Shown: positions 1-17,580 of the stretch, in pieces | How positions within the stretch are numbered: position 1 is the first letter of the stretch | Layout of the letters: the number at the start of each line of letters is the position of its first letter | NCBI GenBank assembly: GCA_039679545.1 | Contig: JBDKUT010000007.1 | Span: 1 to 17,580, forward strand | Reading direction: 5' to 3' | Length of the DNA stretch: 17,580 bases | From: Thermotogota bacterium | Lineage (GTDB): Bacteria; Bipolaricaulota; Bipolaricaulia; UBA7950; UBA9294 | Notes under the pieces: generated by a model | Databases searched by the model: none | What the model was told of the DNA's origin: nothing | Seen by the model: the letters and a program-made list of their open reading frames with translations, nothing else | Position numbers and translations under genes: made by a program

Positions 1-850
1 CGACGTCGATCCGAAGGAGCTTCGCCGGGCGTCCGAGGCGAAGGCCATCGAGCTTCTCGCCTGCGGAATCGATCCGGATCGGTCGATCCTGTTCGTGCAG
101 TCCGACGTCCCCGCCCACACCGAGCTCTGTTGGATCTGCGGGTGCGTCACGTCGTACGGCGACCTGTCCCGAATGACGCAGTTCAAGGACAAGTCGGACA
201 AGCAGGAGTTCGTGTCCGCCGGCTTGTTCACGTACCCGATTCTCCAGGCGGCCGACATCATCATCTACCGCGCCGACGGGGTGCCGGTGGGGGAGGACCA
301 GGTTCAGCACCTCGAGCTGTCACGGCGGATCGCACGCCGGTTCAACTCCCGTTTCGGCGAGTACTTCCCGGAGCCCGAGCCGATCGTGCGCAAGGGTGCG
401 CGGATCATGTCGCTCGCCGATCCAACGTCGAAGATGTCAAAGAGCGCTGGGGAGGTTCAGTACGTCGGGGTGATGGAGCCCGAGACGTCGATCCGGAAGA
501 AGGTCCGGTCGGCGGTCACCGACGTCGGCCTTGAGGCCGGGGCCGCGATGTCCCCGGGCGTCGCGAACCTGTTCGAGATCCTCGAGCTCTCGTGCGAGTC
601 CCTCGGCGACGCGGCGACCGTGCCGGAACTCAAGGCCGAGTTCGCGGACGGGAAGCTTCTGTACTCACGGCTGAAGGACACGACGTTCGAGCGGCTGATG
701 GACGTCCTGCGGCCGATTCAGGAACGGCGAGCGAAGCTCGCGGCGTCCGGCCACATTGTGGAGATTCTCCAATCCGGTGCCCGAAAGGCGACGAAGATCG
801 CGTCGACCACGATGGTCGACGTCCGGCGCCTCGTGGGGCTCGGGACGTAG
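1..850 (+). CDS. trpS: Tryptophanyl-tRNA synthetase (5' end outside the window)
   Basis: Frame is open from position 2 (DVDPKELRR...GIDPDRSILFVQSDVPAH). TrpRS motifs present: GLFTYPILQAADI, VPVGEDQVQHLE, KMSKS. Stop TAG at 848-850. Confidence 0.96.
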   Translation, partial: DVDPKELRRASEAKAIELLACGIDPDRSILFVQSDVPAHTELCWICGCVTSYGDLSRMTQFKDKSDKQEFVSAGLFTYPILQAADIIIYRADGVPVGEDQVQHLELSRRIARRFNSRFGEYFPEPEPIVRKGARIMSLADPTSKMSKSAGEVQYVGVMEPETSIRKKVRSAVTDVGLEAGAAMSPGVANLFEILELSCESLGDAATVPELKAEFADGKLLYSRLKDTTFERLMDVLRPIQERRAKLAASGHIVEILQSGARKATKIASTTMVDVRRLVGLGT

Positions 851-876: not shown

Positions 877-1577
877 CCGCGGACGCCGCCTGCGGCGACG
901 AGCGCGCCGATAACGGTCCACGCTTGCCGCAGCTCATCGATCGACAGAGCCGGGCGGTTTTCCCAGGCGGGGTCGACGAGGCGCTTCTCCGACGGAACGC
1001 GGAACGGTTGGAGCATGTATCGGCGTGCTCCGCGGATCCACTTCGAAATCTCGACGAGGTCCCCCTCGCCGAGGCCGGGGGCCACCGTCGTTCGAAACTC
1101 GTAGTCGACGCCGCTCTCGCGAATGGCTCGCATCGACGCCTCGATCGCCCCGACGTCAATGTTGACTCCGGCGTACTCCGTGTAGCGGGCGGGCGGCGCC
1201 TTGACGTCCATCGCGACGTAGTCGACGAGATCTCTCGCGAAGAGCGCCGACAAGACCTCCGGCCGCGACCCGTTGGTGTCGAGCTTCGTCCGCAGCCCGG
1301 CCTCGTGGACGGCGGCAAGGAACGAGCCGAGGTCCGGCTGGAGCGTCGGCTCGCCGCCCGAAACCACAACCCCATCGAGGAACCCGTTTCGCTCACGCAG
1401 CTTCGCCAGAATCGCTTCCGCGGCGAGCGTCGGCCCCTGCGGCGCGAGCTCCGGCAAGACGAGCTCGTGGTTGTGGCAGAACGGGCAGCGAAGGTTGCAG
1501 CCGACGACGAACACCAGTGCCGACATCCTTCCAGGGTCGTCGGACAAGGACAGCGGACTGAATGCCCCCACGCGCAC
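873..1577 (-). CDS. nrdG: Anaerobic ribonucleoside-triphosphate reductase activating protein (radical SAM)
   Basis: GCNLRCPFCHN (CxxxCxxC), SGGEPTLQ, KLDTNGS, DYVAMDVKAP, YEFRTT. GTG start after GAGGT. Lies directly downstream of nrdD. Confidence 0.95.
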   Translation of the reverse strand: MRVGAFSPLSLSDDPGRMSALVFVVGCNLRCPFCHNHELVLPELAPQGPTLAAEAILAKLRERNGFLDGVVVSGGEPTLQPDLGSFLAAVHEAGLRTKLDTNGSRPEVLSALFARDLVDYVAMDVKAPPARYTEYAGVNIDVGAIEASMRAIRESGVDYEFRTTVAPGLGEGDLVEISKWIRGARRYMLQPFRVPSEKRLVDPAWENRPALSIDELRQAWTVIGALVAAGGVRG

Positions 1578-1589
1578 GGCGACCTCGCA

Positions 1590-3692
1590 CTACGCGGACC
1601 GAATTCCCGTCGTCACGAATGTCTTGCGGTCGGCGAATTCGGCCCGCTTCCCGTCGTTCCACTGCTCGACCGGGCGGAGGTACCCGACGATCCGGGAGTA
1701 GACCTCGGCCGGCGATCCACACGTCGGGCACGCCCGGTGCTCCCCGGCGATGTACCCGTGCTCGGGGCAGATCGAAAACGTCGGCGTCAGCGTGTAGTAC
1801 GGAAGGCGAAACGATTCGGCGATCTTCCGAACCAGGCGTCGCGTCGCGTCGGAGTTGGGAAGACGTTCGCCAAGGAAGCCGTGGAACACCGTCCCCCCGG
1901 TGTACTTCGCCTGGAGCGGGTCCTGGATTCGCAAGGCCTCGTACAGGTCGTCGGTGAACCCGACCGGTAGCTGCGTCGAATTCGTGTAGTACGGGGTCTT
2001 CCCGCCGTGCACCTCGAGGTTGTAGATCCGAAGGTCCGGGAACCGGTCGAGGTCCTTCTTCGCCAAGCGGTAGCTCGCACCCTCCGCCGGCGTGGCCTCG
2101 AGGTTGTAGATCTCACCGGTCTCTTCTTGGTAGGAGCCGAGCTTATCCCGCATCCAGTCGAGGACGCGGATCGCGAACATCTGCCCCGCCGGTTCAGCCA
2201 GCGAGCAGTCCATGAGGTTCAGGAGCGCCTCGTTCATGCCGAGGATGCCGATTGTGGAGAAGTGATTCCGCCAGTATCCGCCCTCCGCTTCCTTGATGCG
2301 CCGCAGGTAGAAGCGCGAGTACGGGTAGAGTCCCTGGTCCGTGAGCTGCTCGAGCGTCTTGCGCTTGATCTCGAGCGCCTTCCGGGATAGATCCATCAGA
2401 GCGCCGAGCCGACGGAAGAAGTCATCCTCGTCCGCGGCGAGATACCCAAGGCGCGGCAGGTTCAGCGTGACGACCCCGATCGAGCCGGTGAGCGGATGCG
2501 CGCCGAAGAGACCGCCCCCGCGGCTTCTGAGCTCGCGGTTGTCGATCCGCAGCCGGCAGCACATGCTGCGAGCATCCTCGGGGCGCATGTCGCTCCCGAT
2601 GAAGTTCGAGAAGTACGGGATCCCGTACTTCGCCGTCATCTCCCAGACCGGCTCGAGGACCGGGTTCTCCCAGTCGAAGTCCTCGGTGATGTTGTAGGTC
2701 GGAATCGGGAAGGTAAACGGGCGGCCCTGCGAGTCCCCCTCCATCATGACCTCGGCGAAGGCGCGATTGAACAAGTCCATCTCCGGCTGGTAGTCGCCGT
2801 AGCACGTCTTTCCGAGCGCGCCATTGAGGACGACGGGTTCTCCCGCCATGAACCGCGGCACCTTGAGGTCGAGGGTGATGTTCGTGAACGGTGTCTGGAA
2901 GCCGACGCGCGTCGGGACGTTCATGTTGTACACGAATTCCTGGATGTTCTGCCGCACCTCTTCGTAGGACAGCCCGTCGGCGCGGATGAACGGGGCGAGG
3001 TACGTATCGACGCTCGAGAACGCCTGGGCGCCCGCCGACTCGCCCTGCAGCGTGTACATGAAGTTGACGATCTGGAGCAGGGCGACACGGAAGTGCTTCG
3101 CCGGGCGGGACTCAATCTTGCCGCGCACGCCACGGAACCCGCGGAGGAGGAGGTCGCGGAGGTCCCACCCTACGCAGTAGGCGCCGAGGGTCCCCAGGTC
3201 GTGGACGTGCACGTCGCCGCTCTCGTGGGCCGTGCGGATCTGGACCGGGTAGATCTTGTGGAGCCAATACTGCGAGATGATCTTGTCCGTAATGTGGGTG
3301 TTCAGGCCTTGAAGAGAGAAGGTCATGTTGCTGTTCTCACGGACCCGCCAGTCGCGGTCGTTCAGGTAGTCCTCCACGAGGGGCATCTCGTCGAGCAGGC
3401 CGCGCATCGCGCGAAGATCTTCGTGCTGCTTGCGATAGAGAATGTACGCCTTGGCGGTACGGGCGAGGCCGCGGTCGATCAGCGTCTCCTCAACGGCGTC
3501 CTGGATCTCTTCGACGGTCGGCGGCTCGCCGACGAAGCGCTGTTCGAGGGTGCGTGTGACGCGCTCGGCCACGCCTTGGGCGAGGTATTCGTCTCCCTCT
3601 CCCACTTCTCGCATGGCCTTCCAAACCGCGGTTGTGATCTTCGTTTGGTTGAAGGAAACGACGCGGCCATCGCGCTTGACGATGCGATCCAT
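1590..3692 (-). CDS. nrdD: Class III (anaerobic) ribonucleoside-triphosphate reductase with N-terminal ATP-cone
   Basis: ATP-cone (IVKRDGRVVSF...VEEIQDAVE), SMCCRL finger loop, CPEH...CPTC metal site, glycyl-radical motif YSRIVGYLRP. SD GAGGGGG. Confidence 0.97.
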   Translation of the reverse strand: MDRIVKRDGRVVSFNQTKITTAVWKAMREVGEGDEYLAQGVAERVTRTLEQRFVGEPPTVEEIQDAVEETLIDRGLARTAKAYILYRKQHEDLRAMRGLLDEMPLVEDYLNDRDWRVRENSNMTFSLQGLNTHITDKIISQYWLHKIYPVQIRTAHESGDVHVHDLGTLGAYCVGWDLRDLLLRGFRGVRGKIESRPAKHFRVALLQIVNFMYTLQGESAGAQAFSSVDTYLAPFIRADGLSYEEVRQNIQEFVYNMNVPTRVGFQTPFTNITLDLKVPRFMAGEPVVLNGALGKTCYGDYQPEMDLFNRAFAEVMMEGDSQGRPFTFPIPTYNITEDFDWENPVLEPVWEMTAKYGIPYFSNFIGSDMRPEDARSMCCRLRIDNRELRSRGGGLFGAHPLTGSIGVVTLNLPRLGYLAADEDDFFRRLGALMDLSRKALEIKRKTLEQLTDQGLYPYSRFYLRRIKEAEGGYWRNHFSTIGILGMNEALLNLMDCSLAEPAGQMFAIRVLDWMRDKLGSYQEETGEIYNLEATPAEGASYRLAKKDLDRFPDLRIYNLEVHGGKTPYYTNSTQLPVGFTDDLYEALRIQDPLQAKYTGGTVFHGFLGERLPNSDATRRLVRKIAESFRLPYYTLTPTFSICPEHGYIAGEHRACPTCGSPAEVYSRIVGYLRPVEQWNDGKRAEFADRKTFVTTGIRSA

Positions 3693-12373: not shown

Positions 12374-12841
12374 GTGGGAAAGACCTTCGCAGGGAAGCTT
12401 GATGGGAAGGGGCTTCGCATCGGAATCGTCGTCTCTCGGTTCAACGACCTGATCACCGGACGGCTCCTCGAAGGCGCCGTCGACCGGCTGCGCCGCTCGA
12501 ACGTCGCCGAGGCGGCGATCGATGTCTGCTGGGTGCCCGGCGCGTTCGAGGTTCCGCGAGCGGTGAAGGACATGGCGGCCACGGGCCGCTACGACGGCGT
12601 CGTCGCGATCGCCGCCGTCATCCGCGGCGCCACGCCGCACTTCGAGTACGTGGCGAACGAGATCACGAAGGGCGTCGCCCGCATCAGCCTCGACGCCGAC
12701 ATCCCCGTCACGTTCGGCGTCATCACCGCCGACACCGTCGATCAGGCCATCGAGCGGGCGGGAACCAAGGCCGGGAACAAGGGCGTCCAGGCTGCCGAGA
12801 GCTTGATCGAGATGATCAACGTTCTGCGCGAGCTGAAATGA
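12374..12841 (+). CDS. ribH: 6,7-dimethyl-8-ribityllumazine synthase
   Basis: True gene is the 3' part of track ORF 11345..12841, with a GTG start at 12374 after SD GAGGAGG. Motifs IVVSRFN, WVPGAFEVP, IRGATPHFEYV, QAIERAGTKAGNKG. Confidence 0.96.
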   Translation: MGKTFAGKLDGKGLRIGIVVSRFNDLITGRLLEGAVDRLRRSNVAEAAIDVCWVPGAFEVPRAVKDMAATGRYDGVVAIAAVIRGATPHFEYVANEITKGVARISLDADIPVTFGVITADTVDQAIERAGTKAGNKGVQAAESLIEMINVLRELK

Positions 12842-14145
12842 CCTACGACCTGGTCCGAGGGATGTACGACATCCTCCCCGACGAAATGCCGTGGTGGCAG
12901 CTTGCCGAGGACGCGGTGCGCGAGATGGCGCGGCGCTACAACTACCGCGAGATCCGCGTTCCGCTCGTCGAGCACACCGAACTCTTCACCCGCGGCGTCG
13001 GCGAAGCGACCGACATCGTCACGAAGGAGATGTACACCTTCCAGGACCGCGGCGAGCGCTCCCTCACCCTTCGCCCGGAAGGCACCGCGTCCGTCGCCCG
13101 CGCCTACCTCACGCACGGGTGGCAGACAAGTGAGCCGTTCCAGAAGCTCTTCTACCTCGGACCCATGTTCCGCTACGAGAAGCCCCAGAAGGGGCGAAAC
13201 CGCCAATTCCACCAGTACGGGATCGAGGTCTTGGGCACCCTCGACCCGAGCGTCGACGCCGAGGTCATCGCCTTCGCCTGGTCGCTCATGGAGGTCCTCG
13301 GCCTCGGCGGCCTGCGGCTGCGCCTGAACTCGATCGGCTGCGCCGCCGATCGCGAGCAGTATCGCGAGATCCTGCGGAAGCACTTCGCCCCGTCAATCGA
13401 TCGGATGTGCGGCGACTGCCGCCGTCGGCTCGACGAGAACCCGCTTCGGATCCTTGACTGCAAAGAAGAACGCTGCCAGCCGTTCATCGAGGAGGCGCCG
13501 GGGAGCGCCGACCACTTGTGCCCTGAGTGCGCCGAGCATTTCGCCGCCGTGCGCGGCTGGCTTGACCGGCTCGAGCTTGCCTACGACATCGACCCGCGAC
13601 TCGTCCGCGGCCTCGACTACTACACCCGCACGGTGTTCGAGCTCATGTCGTCCGACCTCGGCTCGCAGGACACCCTCATCGGTGGCGGCCGCTACGACGG
13701 TCTGATCGAGATGCTGGGCGGGCCGCCGACCCCGGGGATCGGCTTCGCCGGCGGCCTCGAGCGTCTCGTGCTCGTGCTCCAGCAGCGCCAGCCCGACGCG
13801 ATCGAAGCCGAACGCCTCGATCTCTTCCTTGCGACTCTAGGCGACGAGGGACGTCGCACTGGCCTGAAGCTTGCGACCGACCTCAGAAGTTTCGGCATCT
13901 CCGTCGACGTCGACCACCGCGCCCGCGGCCTGCGCAAGCAGATGACCCAGGCCAACCAACTCCGCGCTCGCAACCTCCTCGTCCTCGGCGAAGACGAGGC
14001 CCGCGCCGGGAAGGGCAAGTTGAAAGACATGGATTCCGGCGAGGAGCGTGAAGTCTCGCTCGACCCCGAGAGCCTAGCGGAACTCCTCTATCCTGAGTGC
14101 GGCTGCGACCACGAGGGCGGCGGCAGCTGCGGGTGCAGTTCCTAG
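12838..14145 (+). CDS. hisS: Histidyl-tRNA synthetase
   Basis: RGMYDILP, KEMYTF, LRPEGTA, GPMFRYEKPQKGRNRQFHQ, LVRGLDYYTRTVFE, GGGRYDGL, GFAGGLERL. ATGA overlap with ribH. Confidence 0.97.
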   Translation: MTYDLVRGMYDILPDEMPWWQLAEDAVREMARRYNYREIRVPLVEHTELFTRGVGEATDIVTKEMYTFQDRGERSLTLRPEGTASVARAYLTHGWQTSEPFQKLFYLGPMFRYEKPQKGRNRQFHQYGIEVLGTLDPSVDAEVIAFAWSLMEVLGLGGLRLRLNSIGCAADREQYREILRKHFAPSIDRMCGDCRRRLDENPLRILDCKEERCQPFIEEAPGSADHLCPECAEHFAAVRGWLDRLELAYDIDPRLVRGLDYYTRTVFELMSSDLGSQDTLIGGGRYDGLIEMLGGPPTPGIGFAGGLERLVLVLQQRQPDAIEAERLDLFLATLGDEGRRTGLKLATDLRSFGISVDVDHRARGLRKQMTQANQLRARNLLVLGEDEARAGKGKLKDMDSGEEREVSLDPESLAELLYPECGCDHEGGGSCGCSS

Positions 14146-14154
14146 GAGGGTAGC

Positions 14155-14637
14155 ATGGACCTAAAGCTCGTAGAGATCGAGAACCCCGACAGCCTGAACC
14201 TGATCCTCGGCCAGTCGCACTTCATCAAGACCGTCGAGGACGTCCACGAAGCCCTCGTCGGCGCCGTGCCTGGGATTCAGTTCGGGCTCGCGTTCTGTGA
14301 AGCCTCCGGCGACTGCCTCGTCCGCCACTCCGGCACCGAGCCCAAGCTCGAACAGCTCGCGATCAAGAACGCACAGACCATCGGCGCCGGTCACTCGTTC
14401 ATCGTATTCCTCGGCAACGCCTTCCCGATCAACGTCCTCCAAGCCATCCAGCGCGTCCCCGAGGTCTGCCAGATCTTCTGTGCTACTTCGAACGCCGTCC
14501 AGGTCATCGTCACCGAGACCGAGCAAGGCCGCGGCATCCTTGGCGTCATCGACGGATCGACTCCCAAGGGCATCGAGGACGACAAGGGCATCGCCTGGCG
14601 CAAAGGCTTCCTGCGGAAGATTGGGTACAAGGGGTAA
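14155..14637 (+). CDS. Adenosine-specific kinase family protein (DUF355-like)
   Basis: [78 protein letters not shown]. Confidence 0.88.
   Translation: MDLKLVEIENPDSLNLILGQSHFIKTVEDVHEALVGAVPGIQFGLAFCEASGDCLVRHSGTEPKLEQLAIKNAQTIGAGHSFIVFLGNAFPINVLQAIQRVPEVCQIFCATSNAVQVIVTETEQGRGILGVIDGSTPKGIEDDKGIAWRKGFLRKIGYKG
14458..14637 (+). repeat. Left copy of a 180-bp direct repeat (3' end of the kinase-family gene)
   Basis: Aligns without gaps to 16503-16682. 156/180 identical by hand count. Confidence 0.95.
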
Positions 14638-14645
14638 TGTGAGCA

Positions 14646-14696
14646 GGCCGCAAGTGACACAGCTCGTCAGGCAGCGGGACTTGCGGCCAGGCTTTT
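14646..14696 (+). terminator. Hairpin downstream of the rib-hisS-kinase operon
   Basis: GGCCGCAAGT-N23-ACTTGCGGCC, a perfect 10-bp stem, followed by AGGCTTTT. Confidence 0.45.
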
Positions 14697-14723
14697 GTCT
14701 GCAACTCCCCGATGATGTAATAT
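14695..14723 (+). promoter_or_regulatory. Putative promoter for small ORF A
   Basis: TTGTCT-N17-TAATAT, overlapping an extended -10-like TGATGTAAT. Confidence 0.5.
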
Positions 14724-14768
14724 CGCGCGGATCGATTCGTTGCGTAGCGACTTGAGAGGTGGCTAGCG

Positions 14769-14885
14769 ATGACGAACGCTCTATTGAGGAAGCAACCATG
14801 CGACCGGGCAAGGTCAGAAGCCGCGCAGGCTGTATTAACAAGGATTGCTGGCCCGAGAGATGGTGATGGCCCTGGGCATCCGTAG
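14769..14885 (+). CDS. Small peptide A, 38 aa: MTNALLRKQPCDRARSEAAQAVLTRIAGPRDGDGPGHP
   Basis: SD GAGGTG 7 nt before the ATG, an upstream promoter, a downstream hairpin, and similarity to peptide C. Below the ORF track's length cutoff. Confidence 0.65.
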   Translation: MTNALLRKQPCDRARSEAAQAVLTRIAGPRDGDGPGHP

Positions 14886-14892
14886 AGTCGCC

Positions 14893-14925
14893 TAGGGAAA
14901 GGCCTTCATGCGGGCCTCTCTCCTA
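14893..14925. terminator. Hairpin between convergent peptide A and the 304-aa gene
   Basis: TAGGGAAAGGCC-N8-GGCCTCTCTCCTA, a stem with one bulge and one mismatch. Confidence 0.5.
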
Positions 14926-14936
14926 TCGGCGGTCGC

Positions 14937-15851
14937 TTACCACTGTGGCGCGACTCGCCGCCGCACGGTGTCAGCCAACCTACTTGCGGACAAGAAGAGG
15001 AGCAGGTTCACCCTTCGCCAACGACTTCGAATAGGCAGGCACCTGACTCGGTAGGAGTATGTGCCTTCCGCAGGCCCGAGGATGGTCCAGCAGACACCTC
15101 GCAAGCCCTGGCCGAGGTCCTCGATCTCTACCGTTCCTTGGCGTCTGTGGATAGGTCCCCGCCTCATCTCAAGCCTCTCTGCTGGAACACCTCGCGGCGG
15201 AATGAGGACAATCCTTAGTTCGTCCGCCAGGTCTCGTAGGTGGTAAGAGCAGCTCTTGTCGAGCCCTCGAGCCCGCAAGTCGCTCCAGAGCCCTCGAACC
15301 TTTGCCGAGACTAAGACGCTTCTCTTCTCGGACTCGCGAATGGATGGTAGGAACCAGGCACAGACTTTGATCCTGCCATTGGCCAAGGCGTCTTCGATAG
15401 GCAAGAGAAGGACCTCTGTACCGCTGTCGGATGAGGCAGTTAGCCCCAATTCATCGAAGGAGAGCGGTTTGGGACCGTGTACCCCAGTAGCGCCGAAGTC
15501 CAGTTCCTTGCCCAGGATCGGCTTTTCGCCGACTGCGACGGAAAAATCGTAGTGTCGCTCCTGCCAGTCGCTTCGTGCCGTTAGCCCAATGTGGTAGATG
15601 ACCGAGATTCGTCGCGCGTGGACCCTCGGGGGAATGAACTCCTCAATTGCTGTCCGGAAGTCCTCAATCAGCTCGTTTTGGCGCTCGCGGCAACGAACGA
15701 GTAGCCGGTGCTTACGCCACAGGTGCAACAGGGCGATGCCGAGTATTGCCGCCAGGCCTACGGTGACTCCACCCAGCGGATCTCCTCCAACAAGGTATAC
15801 GATCACCCCGGGGACAAAGGCTAACGCCCACTCGACCAACGAACGTACCAT
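14937..15851 (-). CDS. Hypothetical membrane-anchored protein D (two N-terminal TM segments plus a beta-rich soluble domain)
   Basis: 304-aa ORF in less GC-rich DNA. Hydrophobic segments WALAFVPGVIVYLVGG and GVTVGLAAILGIALLHLW, then basic RKHR, a helical linker and alternating beta-strand patterns. No family recognised. No clear SD. Confidence 0.8.
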   Translation of the reverse strand: MVRSLVEWALAFVPGVIVYLVGGDPLGGVTVGLAAILGIALLHLWRKHRLLVRCRERQNELIEDFRTAIEEFIPPRVHARRISVIYHIGLTARSDWQERHYDFSVAVGEKPILGKELDFGATGVHGPKPLSFDELGLTASSDSGTEVLLLPIEDALANGRIKVCAWFLPSIRESEKRSVLVSAKVRGLWSDLRARGLDKSCSYHLRDLADELRIVLIPPRGVPAERLEMRRGPIHRRQGTVEIEDLGQGLRGVCWTILGPAEGTYSYRVRCLPIRSRWRRVNLLLFLSASRLADTVRRRVAPQW

Positions 15852-15884
15852 AGAAGGCCCGCGCGTGATGTACCGCGCTTCGCA

Positions 15885-15992
15885 CTAGGCTCGTGTCGGC
15901 CCGTCACCGTCTTCCGGCCCCATCTTCTGCACTGACTTCCCCTCGCGGCGGGTAGTCGCGGCACACCTCACTGGTTGCCTGATCAGTGACAT
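15885..15992 (-). CDS. Small peptide C, 35 aa: MSLIRQPVRCAATTRREGKSVQKMGPEDGDGPTRA
   Basis: ATG overlaps the peptide B stop (TGATG), with GGTGG just upstream. Similar to peptide A. Corresponds to the 3' part of track ORF 15885..16157. Confidence 0.6.
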   Translation of the reverse strand: MSLIRQPVRCAATTRREGKSVQKMGPEDGDGPTRA

Positions 15993-16147
15993 CAGATACC
16001 ACCGTCCCGTGGCCCGTCGCCGAGGAGCAAACACCTGACCTCGAAGCCGGCGTGCGGACCACCCCGCACGGCTCCGCCGACCGCTGAAATCCCGAGGCTT
16101 CCGATAACTAGACAGCAGATCACGAACACACAAACCCGATCCCGCAT
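15992..16147 (-). CDS. Small putatively exported peptide B, 51 aa: MRDRVCVFVICCLVIGSLGISAVGGAVRGGPHAGFEVRCLLLGDGPRDGGI
   Basis: GGAGGG about 10 nt upstream. Charged n-region plus hydrophobic h-region like a signal peptide. C-terminal GDGPRDGG. Corresponds to the 3' part of track ORF 15992..16201. Confidence 0.65.
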   Translation of the reverse strand: MRDRVCVFVICCLVIGSLGISAVGGAVRGGPHAGFEVRCLLLGDGPRDGGI

Positions 16148-16343
16148 CTCCGGCCATCCCTCCGCCTGCTTCTTGTCAACTGACACTTCTCTCCGACCCA
16201 CGACTGCACGGAAAAGGCAGGGACCCGCCTTGGAGATCGTGGTTCCTAAGCACGATGCTCCCGCGGTTCCCAGGGTGTCTAGTAGAAGGTCAGGATGACA
16301 GTCCGCAACTCAGACAGATGATGTGCGGTCTCCATGACTTACC

Positions 16344-16371
16344 ACTATACATGTATGTGGTTCGAAGTCAA
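16344..16371 (-). promoter_or_regulatory. Near-consensus sigma70 promoter facing B-C-D, embedded in an inverted repeat
   Basis: Minus strand TTGACT (16371-16366), 16-nt spacer, TATAGT (16349-16344). Inverted repeat spans 16335-16370. Confidence 0.65.
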
Positions 16372-16502
16372 GAGATTGAATCGACAGGAGATAGTGTCTT
16401 CCGTGCGGCGTGGTTGCCGTCAACTCGGGATGCAGCACCGGACAAAGTGAGGAGGCTCCGGAAGGCGTGAAACGCGGCTGCCAACAGGCGATGTGACGAA
16501 GC

Positions 16503-16682
16503 CCCGAGGTCTGCTGCATCTTCTGTGCCACCTCGAACCCCGTAGAGGTCGTCGTCGCCGAGACCAAGCAAGGCCGCGGCATCCTCGGCGTGATCGACGG
16601 CGCGCCGCCGAAAGGCATCGAGGACGACAAGGGCATCGCTTGGCGCAAAGGCTTCCCGCGCAAGATCGGGTACAAGGGGTAG
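16503..16682 (+). pseudogene. Orphan 3' fragment (59 codons) of the adenosine-specific kinase family gene; right copy of the direct repeat
   Basis: Translates [59 protein letters not shown]. An in-frame TGA at 16494-16496 lies upstream and there is no 5' part. Confidence 0.93.
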
Positions 16683-16876
16683 GGTCCGCCGGTCGCAGAA
16701 CTGCGCCCGCTGCGTGGCAAACTACAGGCTACGAGCTGCCCAGTTCATTTCGGGCAGAAGCACTTGTGGAAACATCAGACTACGCGTCACGCGTTGCGTG
16801 TACGCTCTCGCGAGCGGCCAAACAGGGTTGGCCGATACCGGGCCAAGGGAGGAGGACGGCAAAACCGTAACGTTAG

Positions 16877-17428
16877 CACCTCCTCGAACTGGCCCGGTAT
16901 GTGGTGCTGAACCCCGTGCGGGCGCGAGCTGTGCGGAGCGTCCGCGACTGGCCGTGGTCAAGCTACCGCGCAACAGCAGGGATGGCGGAAGTACCCAAGT
17001 TCCTCACGACTGACTGGATTCTTTCGCAGTTCCATCGGACCCCACGCCGCGCAATCGAGCTCTACCACGAGTTCGTAAAGCAGGGCCGCGGCGTCAACGC
17101 CTGGACCGAGCTGCGGGGCGGCATCCTGCTCGGTACCGACGAGTTCGTCGACAAGCTGAAGCCGCTCCTCTCAGACTACGAGGCGCTGAAAGAGATCCCA
17201 CGCCGCGAGCGTCTTGCTGCCCGACCGAGCCTTGACGAGCTGTTCTCCAAGGTGCGTGACAAGAAGGCACGCAACAGGCAGATCCACGCGGCCGTCCGCG
17301 TTCACGAGTACACGCTTCAGGCGGTCGCCGACTTCCTTGGCCTTCACTACTCGACCATCAGCGTCATCGCCAAGCGCGTCGCCGCCGACCGGAGAACACA
17401 AAAAGTGAAGATCTCGTACATTGCGTAG
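16877..17428 (+). pseudogene. 5'-truncated Y1 (HUH) / REP-associated tyrosine transposase-like gene with C-terminal HTH
   Basis: HLLELARYVVLNPVRA...DWPWSSYRATAG...LG.DEFV...YTLQAVADFLGLHYSTIS matches the C-terminal half of RAYT-like Y1 transposases. In-frame TAG at 16874-16876. The N-terminal HUH part is absent. Confidence 0.82.
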
Positions 17429-17580
17429 GCGTTGACGAAGCCGGTTGCTCTCTAGACTAGTGACGGATGGAGAGTCTGTCGGGTGGGCAGGTCGGTGAAG
17501 ATCGGAACGGCACTTGTGCCAGTTCGTGGGTCAGATGGACCGCCCTCCCACAAGCCCGGACAGCATCTGGAGCGCAGCTC

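Follow-up and report, generated by a model that had tools for sequence, protein, structure and literature searches.

Three very short open reading frames (ORFs), A, B, and C, surround gene D (304 amino acids [aa]; positions 14937 to 15851, minus strand) on a 17,580-nt contig (JBDKUT010000007.1) from a Thermotogota bacterium, and the locus raises the question of whether these ORFs encode genuine micro-proteins and how they might be connected with D. The window, i.e., the whole stretch of DNA analyzed, is this entire contig from a 2.35-Mb, 163-contig assembly (GCA_039679545.1). An earlier note, made from the letters of the sequence, had described A and C as paralogues that point at D from both sides. 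Our analysis indicates that the small ORFs are probably micro-proteins that partner D, likely as ligands. In the combined reading, which we favor with somewhat better than even confidence, they form a translated micro-protein family whose hallmark is a turn motif at the C-terminus, G-P-x-D-G (in A and C, the longer GPxDGDGP). This family would work functionally with D by docking of the GPxDG tail on the D beta-sandwich and would be carried by a compact, horizontally moved unit of two opposed transcription units. The parts of this reading differ in strength. Judging from the comparisons presented here, it is quite likely that A, B, and C are real coding ORFs, conserved and linked to D; that they bind D in the manner proposed is put forward tentatively, as a possibility that may well prove wrong.

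ORF A (38 aa; 14769 to 14885, plus strand) is convergent with D and carries GPRDGDGP at 14850 to 14873, after which come GHP and the stop codon. ORF C (35 aa; 15885 to 15992, minus strand) is co-oriented with D, with a gap of 33 nt between its end and the ATG of D, and carries GPEDGDGP at 15897 to 15920, followed by TRA and the stop codon. ORF B (51 aa from an ATG behind GGAGGG; 15992 to 16147, minus strand, with a possible GTG start at 16201) has a TGA that overlaps the ATG of C (TGATG); it contains one hydrophobic helix (hydropathy peak, 2.73) and has the C-terminus GDGPRDGGI. The A and C peptides read exactly as the earlier note had quoted them. Its view of A and C as paralogues held up, and its picture of both facing D did not, C being co-oriented with D and A alone convergent. 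The reported lack of a signal peptide in A and C was borne out as well: neither contains a hydrophobic stretch (best 19-residue hydropathy, −0.18 for A and −0.54 for C), and by sequence both are soluble, basic peptides. These features led us to reject a C-terminal sorting signal of the PEP-CTERM or GlyGly-CTERM type. In such signals, a membrane helix and then basic residues in a cluster come after the motif, and the protein has an N-terminal signal peptide; here, the motif is followed by 0 to 15 polar residues and a stop, and A and C have no hydrophobic stretch. Scans of A, B, C, and D matched 0 families in Pfam and 0 in NCBIfam, with nothing significant. Micro-proteins of fewer than 50 residues are routinely missed by gene callers, and A, B, and C are in no catalogue of the 5.8 billion proteins that we searched.

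BLASTP aligned A and C without gaps at 11 of 30 identical residues (E = 9e-5 for this single comparison). The local BLOSUM62 score of 49 was reached by none of 5,000 shuffles (20.2 ± 4.3), so that the alignment passed the shuffle check that the earlier note had proposed. Among 5,589 non-overlapping pairs of real 25- to 70-aa ORFs from the window, 22 scored 49 or higher, mostly Arg/Ser-rich off-frame ORFs; because real ORF pairs match it, the A-C pair score is by itself not decisive. These pairs, together with the 29 six-frame matches to GP[RE]DG alone in this GC-rich genome, are what favors a chance resemblance of the kind that abundant Gly, Pro, Asp, and Arg codons could produce. The eight-residue motif argues otherwise. 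The pattern GP.DGDGP (the dot stands for any residue) has two occurrences in the six-frame translation of the 2.35-Mb genome, which are A and C, approximately 1 kb apart, each followed by 3 residues and a stop; it has none at the other 4,670,680 codon positions. The shared GP[R/E]DGDGP ending with exactly three residues behind it, as first noted, is therefore found in A and C and nowhere else in the genome in six frames. Moreover, the motif recurs at the same places around a D homologue in a second locus (described below), and we consider chance to be an extremely unlikely explanation. The search that the earlier note had proposed thus gave no further copy of the motif in the rest of the genome, and in the protein catalogue nothing was found at an E value of ≤10 among 5.8 billion proteins. 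Full-text literature searches for DGDGP and further motif strings returned, judged by the search results, unrelated works alone and nothing on the motif or the cassette.

The closest homologous locus provides the strongest view of how these ORFs are maintained. Among 5.8 billion proteins, D had one match at an E value of ≤0.01 (P0001; 48% identity), and the metagenome contig that encodes it (L004; 2,002 nt) has the same layout, with B′, C′, D′, and a convergent A′. B′ (3 to 122, plus strand) is cut by the contig end, contains a hydrophobic stretch, and ends in CVVLGPRDGG plus a stop codon that lies 4 nt before C′. C′ (127 to 210, plus strand; MPEHKRSRSRKRRKGPRDGDGPVAKTE) carries GPRDGDGP, with the tail GPRDGDGPVAKTE, and is followed on the same strand by D′ (227 to 1123). 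A′ (1124 to 1249, minus strand; DPGPKDGDGPGRQSGNSFGFSYRPF) carries GPKDGDGPG and abuts the D′ stop. Gene order and orientation are thus conserved. The connection that had been drawn between the GPRDG of B and that of A is supported by the ending of B′, although GP[RE]DG alone is common, whereas the proposed N-terminal likeness of A and C (L[L/I]R(K)QP and a Cys) is not kept in L004. Frame disruptions in relatives that keep D, set beforehand in the earlier note as evidence against it, were not seen: the small ORFs are open in L004, where B′ is cut by the contig end, and no insertions or deletions are listed for 14769 to 15992 in contigs from another study.

We then compared the motif at the codon level. 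The codons are GGC CCG AGA GAT GGT GAT GGC CCT in A, GGG CCG GAA GAC GGT GAC GGG CCG in C, GGC CCG CGA GAT GGT GAC GGT CCG in C′, and GGG CCC AAG GAT GGT GAT GGC CCA in A′. When the variable codon (R, E, R, and K, respectively) is excluded, these four 8-codon copies have 6 varying sites, all among the 7 third positions, and 0 of the 14 first and second positions vary. Calculated by hand, the probability that 6 varying sites would all be third positions is 7/54264. The motifs of B and B′ differ at 4 of 18 nt, all of them third-position and synonymous. As far as sequence comparison can tell, this substitution pattern is that of selection on the amino acid sequence in this frame, unlike that expected of a DNA site. 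It bears directly on the possibility that the motif copies are DNA-level sites (bound by a regulator or recombinase, or left by decayed terminal inverted repeats) in which the open frames are incidental. Such a view takes some encouragement from the arrangement of two direct copies upstream of D and one inverted copy downstream, which is like that of subterminal repeats, and from the fact that the cassette is clearly inserted DNA. However, variation confined to third codon positions of one frame is not what it predicts, and no DNA inverted repeat joining the A and C regions was found at seed 9, the borders of the insert being direct repeats of a host gene end. In addition, no transposase or recombinase gene was detected between 14653 and 16501 among the Pfam and NCBIfam scans. 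The DNA pattern GGNCCNNNNGAYGGNGAYGGNCC occurs elsewhere at chance level, with 5 matches in the 183 class genomes other than the home genome (G000) and 5 matches of the reversed control pattern across all 184, and the copies in two distant loci (L013 and L014; see below) keep their amino acids at 54% and 39% GC. We therefore regard DNA-level sites as very improbable. One match to the DNA pattern, in genome G178 (L009), does read GPRDGDGP; it lies out of frame inside two real genes and was rejected as chance.

When 184 genomes of the phylum were searched with a profile, the D family was located in 4 of them, the home genome included, which allowed us to ask whether more distant D homologues have similar neighbors. 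In L013 (G178, 54% GC), a convergent small ORF, MLIRTVYVVLLNGPDDGE, ends approximately 40 nt past the D homologue (1336 to 2352, plus strand). In L014 (G106, 39% G+C), the D homologue (1474 to 2565, minus strand) has two convergent small ORFs within 130 nt; the first has the tail AGPDDGT (FFGPVKAFAGPDDGT), and the second, MSENFQNGPDDSTGG, stands behind AAGGAGGT, 7 nt from the gene end. The tails in these two loci read GPDDG[E/T] just past the D homologue, and each locus contains exactly one GP.DG in all six frames. By way of background frequency, GP.DG with a stop within 2 residues occurs 8 times, and GPDDG 4 times, per 4.67 million codon positions of the home genome; the 8 other GP.DG-stop frames in that genome are Arg-rich off-frame stretches with no hydrophobic segment. 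Overall, GPxDG small ORFs are present at 4 of the 5 D-family loci for which DNA is available, and at each of the four at least one such ORF lies immediately downstream of D in convergent orientation. When the nine small ORFs are aligned, G, P, and D are invariant and just the C-terminal G-P-x-D-G is conserved, the N-terminal parts being unalignable; the variable motif position reads R, E, R, K, D, D, and D in seven copies. The R/E difference between A and C, which the earlier note had read as possibly marking two specificity variants, falls at this single variable position.

Two further observations concern this linkage. In L013, an HU gene lies 2 nt ahead of the start of the small ORF. Six genus-mates possess this HU gene and no D homologue; in them, the DNA match begins at query positions 100 to 109, just inside the HU 3′ end, and never covers the small ORF, which indicates that the small ORF travels with D and not with HU. 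In addition, GP.DG occurs in 0 of 45 D-family proteins, so the small ORFs are not fragments of D. Searches for more D loci found none in the genome contig collection (profile A2 and P0008) or in viral contigs (A2, P0048, P0003, and P0012), and tblastn searches gave no match for D, P0008, and P0009 against plasmids or for D against phages. As to other features of the distant loci, a membrane protein of 149 aa, with several helices and without a Pfam family, is encoded at 882 to 1331 (plus strand) of L013, ending 4 nt before the D homologue; in that branch, it may act as an additional partner. A phage-integrase fragment lies near the L014 locus. The remaining locus, L015 (G151), contains two tandem, overlapping D-family paralogues (1456 to 2415 and 2379 to 3272, minus strand) and a convergent 86-aa ORF with a hydrophobic helix that ends on the stop of the first paralogue.

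The convergent placement of the motif ORFs also bears on whether the small ORFs are cis-acting regulatory elements, such that translation of, or stalling on, the ...DG(DGP) tail is what matters, with B and C tuning the translation of D through coupling and A tuning convergent transcription. Several features are reminiscent of such elements. Conservation is limited to the C-terminal residues near the stop while the rest varies, and arrest or leader peptides are likewise conserved near the C-terminus. Further, B combines a membrane helix at its N-terminus with a conserved tail that immediately precedes the next start codon and with the TGATG overlap, a layout that leaders of the "monitoring substrate" type resemble. 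However, at all four loci a motif ORF runs convergently to D with no gene beyond it on its own strand, and such an ORF cannot be a D leader. B and C have the upstream, same-strand position required of a leader, and A, A′, and the ORFs of L013 and L014 do not. Moreover, 41 to 53 nt separate the end of the C motif from the D start, a distance too great for the two to be coupled directly; D does not belong to the secretion machinery; and the distance from motif to stop in the A/C type varies from 3 to 15 codons. We therefore judge a purely regulatory role for these ORFs to be unlikely, and we continue to favor micro-proteins that partner D.

What kind of protein, then, is D? It is predicted to have two N-terminal membrane helices, a beta-sandwich, and a C-terminal amphipathic helix. 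It matched no family in Pfam, NCBIfam, or PADLOC, and a search of 60 relatives gave no real match, two G005 fragments at E values of ~0.007 being noise. A profile built from D and P0001 retrieved 44 proteins at an E value of ≤1e-3 from 1.84 billion representatives (12 at ≤1e-10 and 2 at ≤1e-30); family members are mostly singletons from metagenomes, with no Pfam family on the common core. Among the 45 family members, PADLOC gave single weak matches to one member each (PDC-S42, 7e-05; PycC, 8e-04; mad1, 1.6e-03). We modeled D using AF2 with a 45-sequence alignment, which gave a predicted local distance difference test score (pLDDT) of 93 and a predicted template modeling score (pTM) of 0.84; a model from a 2-sequence alignment had a pLDDT of 38 and was set aside. 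The model has helices at residues 2 to 22 and 25 to 70 (the first ~45 residues are hydrophobic), the beta-sandwich at 78 to 270, and a basic amphipathic helix at 277 to 303. In a VIA search of 48,161 chains, for which the typical best Z without a true match is 7 to 8, the best match was ribophorin I/OST1 (6s7o_E; Z, 13.6; 202 residues aligned; root mean square deviation, 4.1), with a second OST1 chain at a Z of 12.8 (6c26_1), and next came the N-terminal domains of M1 aminopeptidases, LTA4H and ERAP1 among them (5fwq_A, 3qnf_A, and others), and 3kd4, at Z values of 9 to 11. Foldseek returned the same set (TMq, 0.35 to 0.42). Residues 76 to 273 of the sandwich superpose on these matches, and for ribophorin I the following helix aligns too. 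The modeled sandwich thus has the fold of ribophorin I and the M1-aminopeptidase N-domain, as a fold match alone that shows no function: sequence identity to the matches is 5 to 12%, D has no catalytic domain, and no Pfam model of those families matches D. Ribophorin I and M1 N-domains adjoin peptide substrates in their own complexes. Other fold searches were less informative; BFVD returned giant-virus proteins alone, including one M1-aminopeptidase-like and one inter-alpha-trypsin-inhibitor-family protein (TMq, 0.31 to 0.36), and the ESM Atlas gave a weak result, with unnamed "hypothetical protein" clusters alone (recognition, 2168 versus a mark of 2300).

The topology of D can be predicted from its charge distribution: because an Arg/Lys run follows the second helix, the sandwich is most likely cytoplasmic. 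In two weak family matches, a class III nucleotide cyclase domain (P0042) or a helix-turn-helix (HTH) domain (P0043), in place of membrane helices, precedes the D-like domain, contexts that would fit a binding or sensing module. Complex predictions for residues 60 to 304 of D with A gave scores of 0.29 and 0.10 (alignments A5 and A9, respectively) versus a mark of 0.32, without controls, and speak neither for nor against binding.

We next considered how the two sides of the locus might be expressed. The proposal that A and C are separately regulated copies agrees with the promoter-like sites. C lies in B-C-D behind TTGACT, 16 nt, TATAGT (16344 to 16371, minus strand; 10 of 12 consensus matches); the consensus promoter scan found 2 sites versus 0.5 ± 0.7 expected in shuffles. 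A has its own site, TTGTCT, 17 nt, TAATAT (14695 to 14723, plus strand), whose hexamers and spacing were read by eye and which falls below the threshold of that scan. A similar site (TTGTCA, 17 nt, TAATAT, also read by eye) lies upstream of A′, and the 10-mer GATGTAATAT occurs once in the window (14714 to 14723, plus strand) and once in L004 (1286 to 1295, minus strand, upstream of A′), with 0.00 expected in shuffles of each. A Shine-Dalgarno-like GAGAGGTGG (14754 to 14762, plus strand) lies 7 nt before the A ATG. From these signals, B-C-D would form an operon and A a separate convergent unit with its own promoter-like site. Between the stops of A and D lies a hairpin (14889 to 14931; −25.4 kcal/mol; z, −2.69 on the D strand) that is probably a two-way terminator, with 0 sites in the terminator scan; its conservation is unsupported, the L004 counterpart folding weakly (z, −0.36). 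Purine-rich hairpins were also observed on or just after the stops of D (GGAGAGAGGCC, 14889 to 14931) and of the L013 homologue (GAGAGGAGC, L013 2340 to 2365), the stem of the latter being read by eye alone.

The promoter-like site of A raises the alternative that its transcript is mainly an antisense RNA that targets the D mRNA at its 3′ end, in the style of type I toxin-antitoxin systems, with coding secondary. That site is conserved and A runs toward the D 3′ end, the A′ frame abuts the D′ stop in L004, and the same insertion site holds a PemK/RHH (ribbon-helix-helix) pair in a sister species, all of which would suit an antisense function. Nevertheless, the conserved part is a codon-periodic peptide motif and not a stretch overlapping D; the hairpin lies between A and D in the window; D, a folded protein of 304 residues, does not resemble the short hydrophobic toxins of type I systems; and Rfam gave 0 matches at an E value of ≤1 for 14400 to 17000. 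We consider a mainly antisense role quite improbable and return to A as a peptide.

Taken as micro-proteins that partner D, the small ORFs suggest the following hypothetical mechanism. From the promoter upstream of B, a single-helix membrane peptide (B), a basic soluble peptide (C), and D would be made in that order, while A, separately promoted, would be transcribed toward the D 3′ end. The GPxDG tail would serve as a short docking motif bound by the D beta-sandwich. C would be supplied in step with D and A from its own promoter, so that the soluble peptides A and C could compete for, or modulate, one site on D, and B could contact D in the membrane. A more specific version, which we regard as fairly unlikely, is a previously undescribed type of peptide-receptor module in which a membrane-anchored, ribophorin-I-like sandwich reads GPxDG micro-proteins and the ratio of C to A sets the receptor state; this state could be, e.g., a membrane-damaging or growth-arresting activity in a mobile defense or addiction module. 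Confirmation of binding would make GPxDG a new short linear motif and would give the D family its first functional handle, and the locus offers a concrete, testable case of a peptide motif with a probable receptor domain in an uncultured phylum.

Several points weigh against this reading, in addition to the scores of real ORF pairs given above. The synonymous pattern is partly conditioned, as the motif was picked at the protein level; that choice does not affect the genome-wide uniqueness of the motif or its recurrence in L004. The N-terminal parts of A and A′, and of C and C′, are unalignable and just the 5- to 8-residue motif is conserved; therefore, no formal ratio of nonsynonymous to synonymous substitution rates (dN/dS) is computable. 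The conservation of B could be partly at the RNA level, because its last codons (GAC GGN GGN) coincide with the expected ribosome-binding site of C. A profile of the peptides, searched against the 5.8 billion predicted proteins, gave 3 word-sharing candidates, none at an E value of ≤10. L015, the weakest and most distant match, has no GP.DG small ORF, and the association is limited to 4 loci, which come either from a single phylum or from a metagenome contig that is unplaced; the linkage count covers five D-family loci, the flanks of the other 40-odd family members lying outside it. Finally, none of the RNA runs searched contains the stretch, and transcription and translation of the small ORFs are inferred.

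How did this arrangement come to lie where it does? Upstream are a gene for histidyl-tRNA synthetase (HisRS; 12838 to 14145, plus strand) and an intact gene of the adenosine-specific-kinase family (14155 to 14637, plus strand; PF04008, E = 1.9e-75). The 3′ end of the PF04008 gene forms the left copy of a direct repeat (14457 to 14652, plus strand); the right copy is an orphan PF04008 gene end (16502 to 16697, plus strand; 196 nt, 85% identical to 14457 to 14652). The G+C content is 0.64 to 0.69 outside the repeat copies and 0.57 to 0.61 between them; A, D, C, and B thus form one 1.85-kb insert (14653 to 16501) bracketed by the duplicated end of a host gene. Both junctions are bridged by independently assembled contigs (X1 record 2, 14142 to 15469; X2 record 14, 16121 to 17443), and 14866 to 16031 is nearly unchanged in a run from a second study (X3 records 19 and 20). 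An insertion sequence or transposon with terminal inverted repeats was ruled out, since the insert has no transposase and its borders are direct repeats. Three short contigs in run X4, which belongs to another study, connect 14241 or 14310 straight to 16501 or 16518, as though the kinase-family gene ran on into the second copy and the cassette were skipped; these joints are a hint of an insert-free form, with sides of just 21 to 30 nt, and such joints often come from other organisms.

The same site has been used elsewhere in the genus. In the sister species G005 (L018), the PF04008 gene (1792 to 2274) also has its own 3′ end partially repeated behind it (~3061 to 3322; query 477 to 738, 82% identical, approximately 790 nt downstream), and the insert contains a PemK/MazF-type toxin (E = 1.2e-20) and an RHH antitoxin. 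G001 has the PF04008 gene without a duplicate. Because the gene-end duplication surrounds different inserts here and in G005, the 3′ end of the PF04008 gene appears to be a reused entry point for small accessory modules in the genus. The position of the cassette in a hotspot where another species carries a toxin-antitoxin pair points to a selfish or defense-like accessory module. Beyond the right repeat copy, 16714 to 17428 contains a gene like those of REP-associated (repetitive extragenic palindrome) tyrosine transposases, with the stretch LLELARYVVLNPVRA from approximately 16870 and then an HTH-like tail. Only its C-terminal part is recognizable (16901 to 17428; weak NF047646 match, E = 0.008, last 19 profile positions); the catalytic N-terminal half is missing, directly after the orphan gene-end copy. 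On the other flank, the C-terminal tail of HisRS (14100 to 14145) is Cys/Gly rich, CGCDHEGGGSCGCSS, and is longer in G001 and different in G005.

Comparison with known systems brings in one more alternative, that A, B, and C are precursors of ribosomally synthesized and posttranslationally modified peptides (RiPPs), modified or exported by D, a likeness already raised in the earlier note. As in RiPP clusters, several short paralogous ORFs lie beside an uncharacterized gene for a membrane protein, and the motif contains Asp-Gly, a chemically reactive dipeptide. The likeness does not extend further. The cassette encodes no modifying enzyme, protease, or exporter family, and the flanks are HisRS, the PF04008 gene, and the truncated transposase-like gene; D has the fold of a non-catalytic beta-sandwich; and the nine small ORFs conserve the C-terminal G-P-x-D-G alone, with no conserved leader, a layout that would be unusual for a RiPP precursor and looks like the opposite of the usual leader/core pattern. 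We did not retain this idea, to which we assign little probability.

The locus can be set beside other classes of systems in the same way. No model of the antiphage defense collection PADLOC 2.0 was matched by D, A, or C at an E value of ≤1, and, more broadly, no described small-protein family, defense system, toxin-antitoxin family, or RiPP class was matched. The cassette is like type II toxin-antitoxin systems (PemK/MazF with RHH) in being compact and patchily distributed, and a pair of that kind occupies the same site in G005; it is unlike them in that no cassette ORF matches a toxin or antitoxin family and in that the gene content and the convergent unit differ. Arrest or monitoring-substrate leaders of the SecM, MifM, and ApdA/ApdP type share with these ORFs a short Gly/Pro-rich C-terminal conservation and, in B, an N-terminal helix directly upstream of the next ORF, whereas here the downstream gene is not a secretion component and the most widely conserved copy is convergent, with no gene to regulate. 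Unlike ribophorin I and M1 proteins, D is bacterial, lacks a catalytic domain, and has its membrane helices at the N-terminus. Finally, small proteins are known to regulate membrane proteins, as MgrB does PhoQ, MgtS does MgtA, and AcrZ does AcrB. A, B, and C resemble these regulators as very short ORFs adjoining a membrane protein gene, and B has the single helix typical of the class. They differ in having no sequence relation to the small-protein families described in Pfam or NCBIfam, in that A and C are soluble and basic, and in being three paralogues with a GPxDG tail, one of which is always convergent with the partner gene. In its particulars, the cassette is undescribed: three paralogous motif micro-ORFs, one always convergent, are arranged around a ribophorin-I-like membrane protein.

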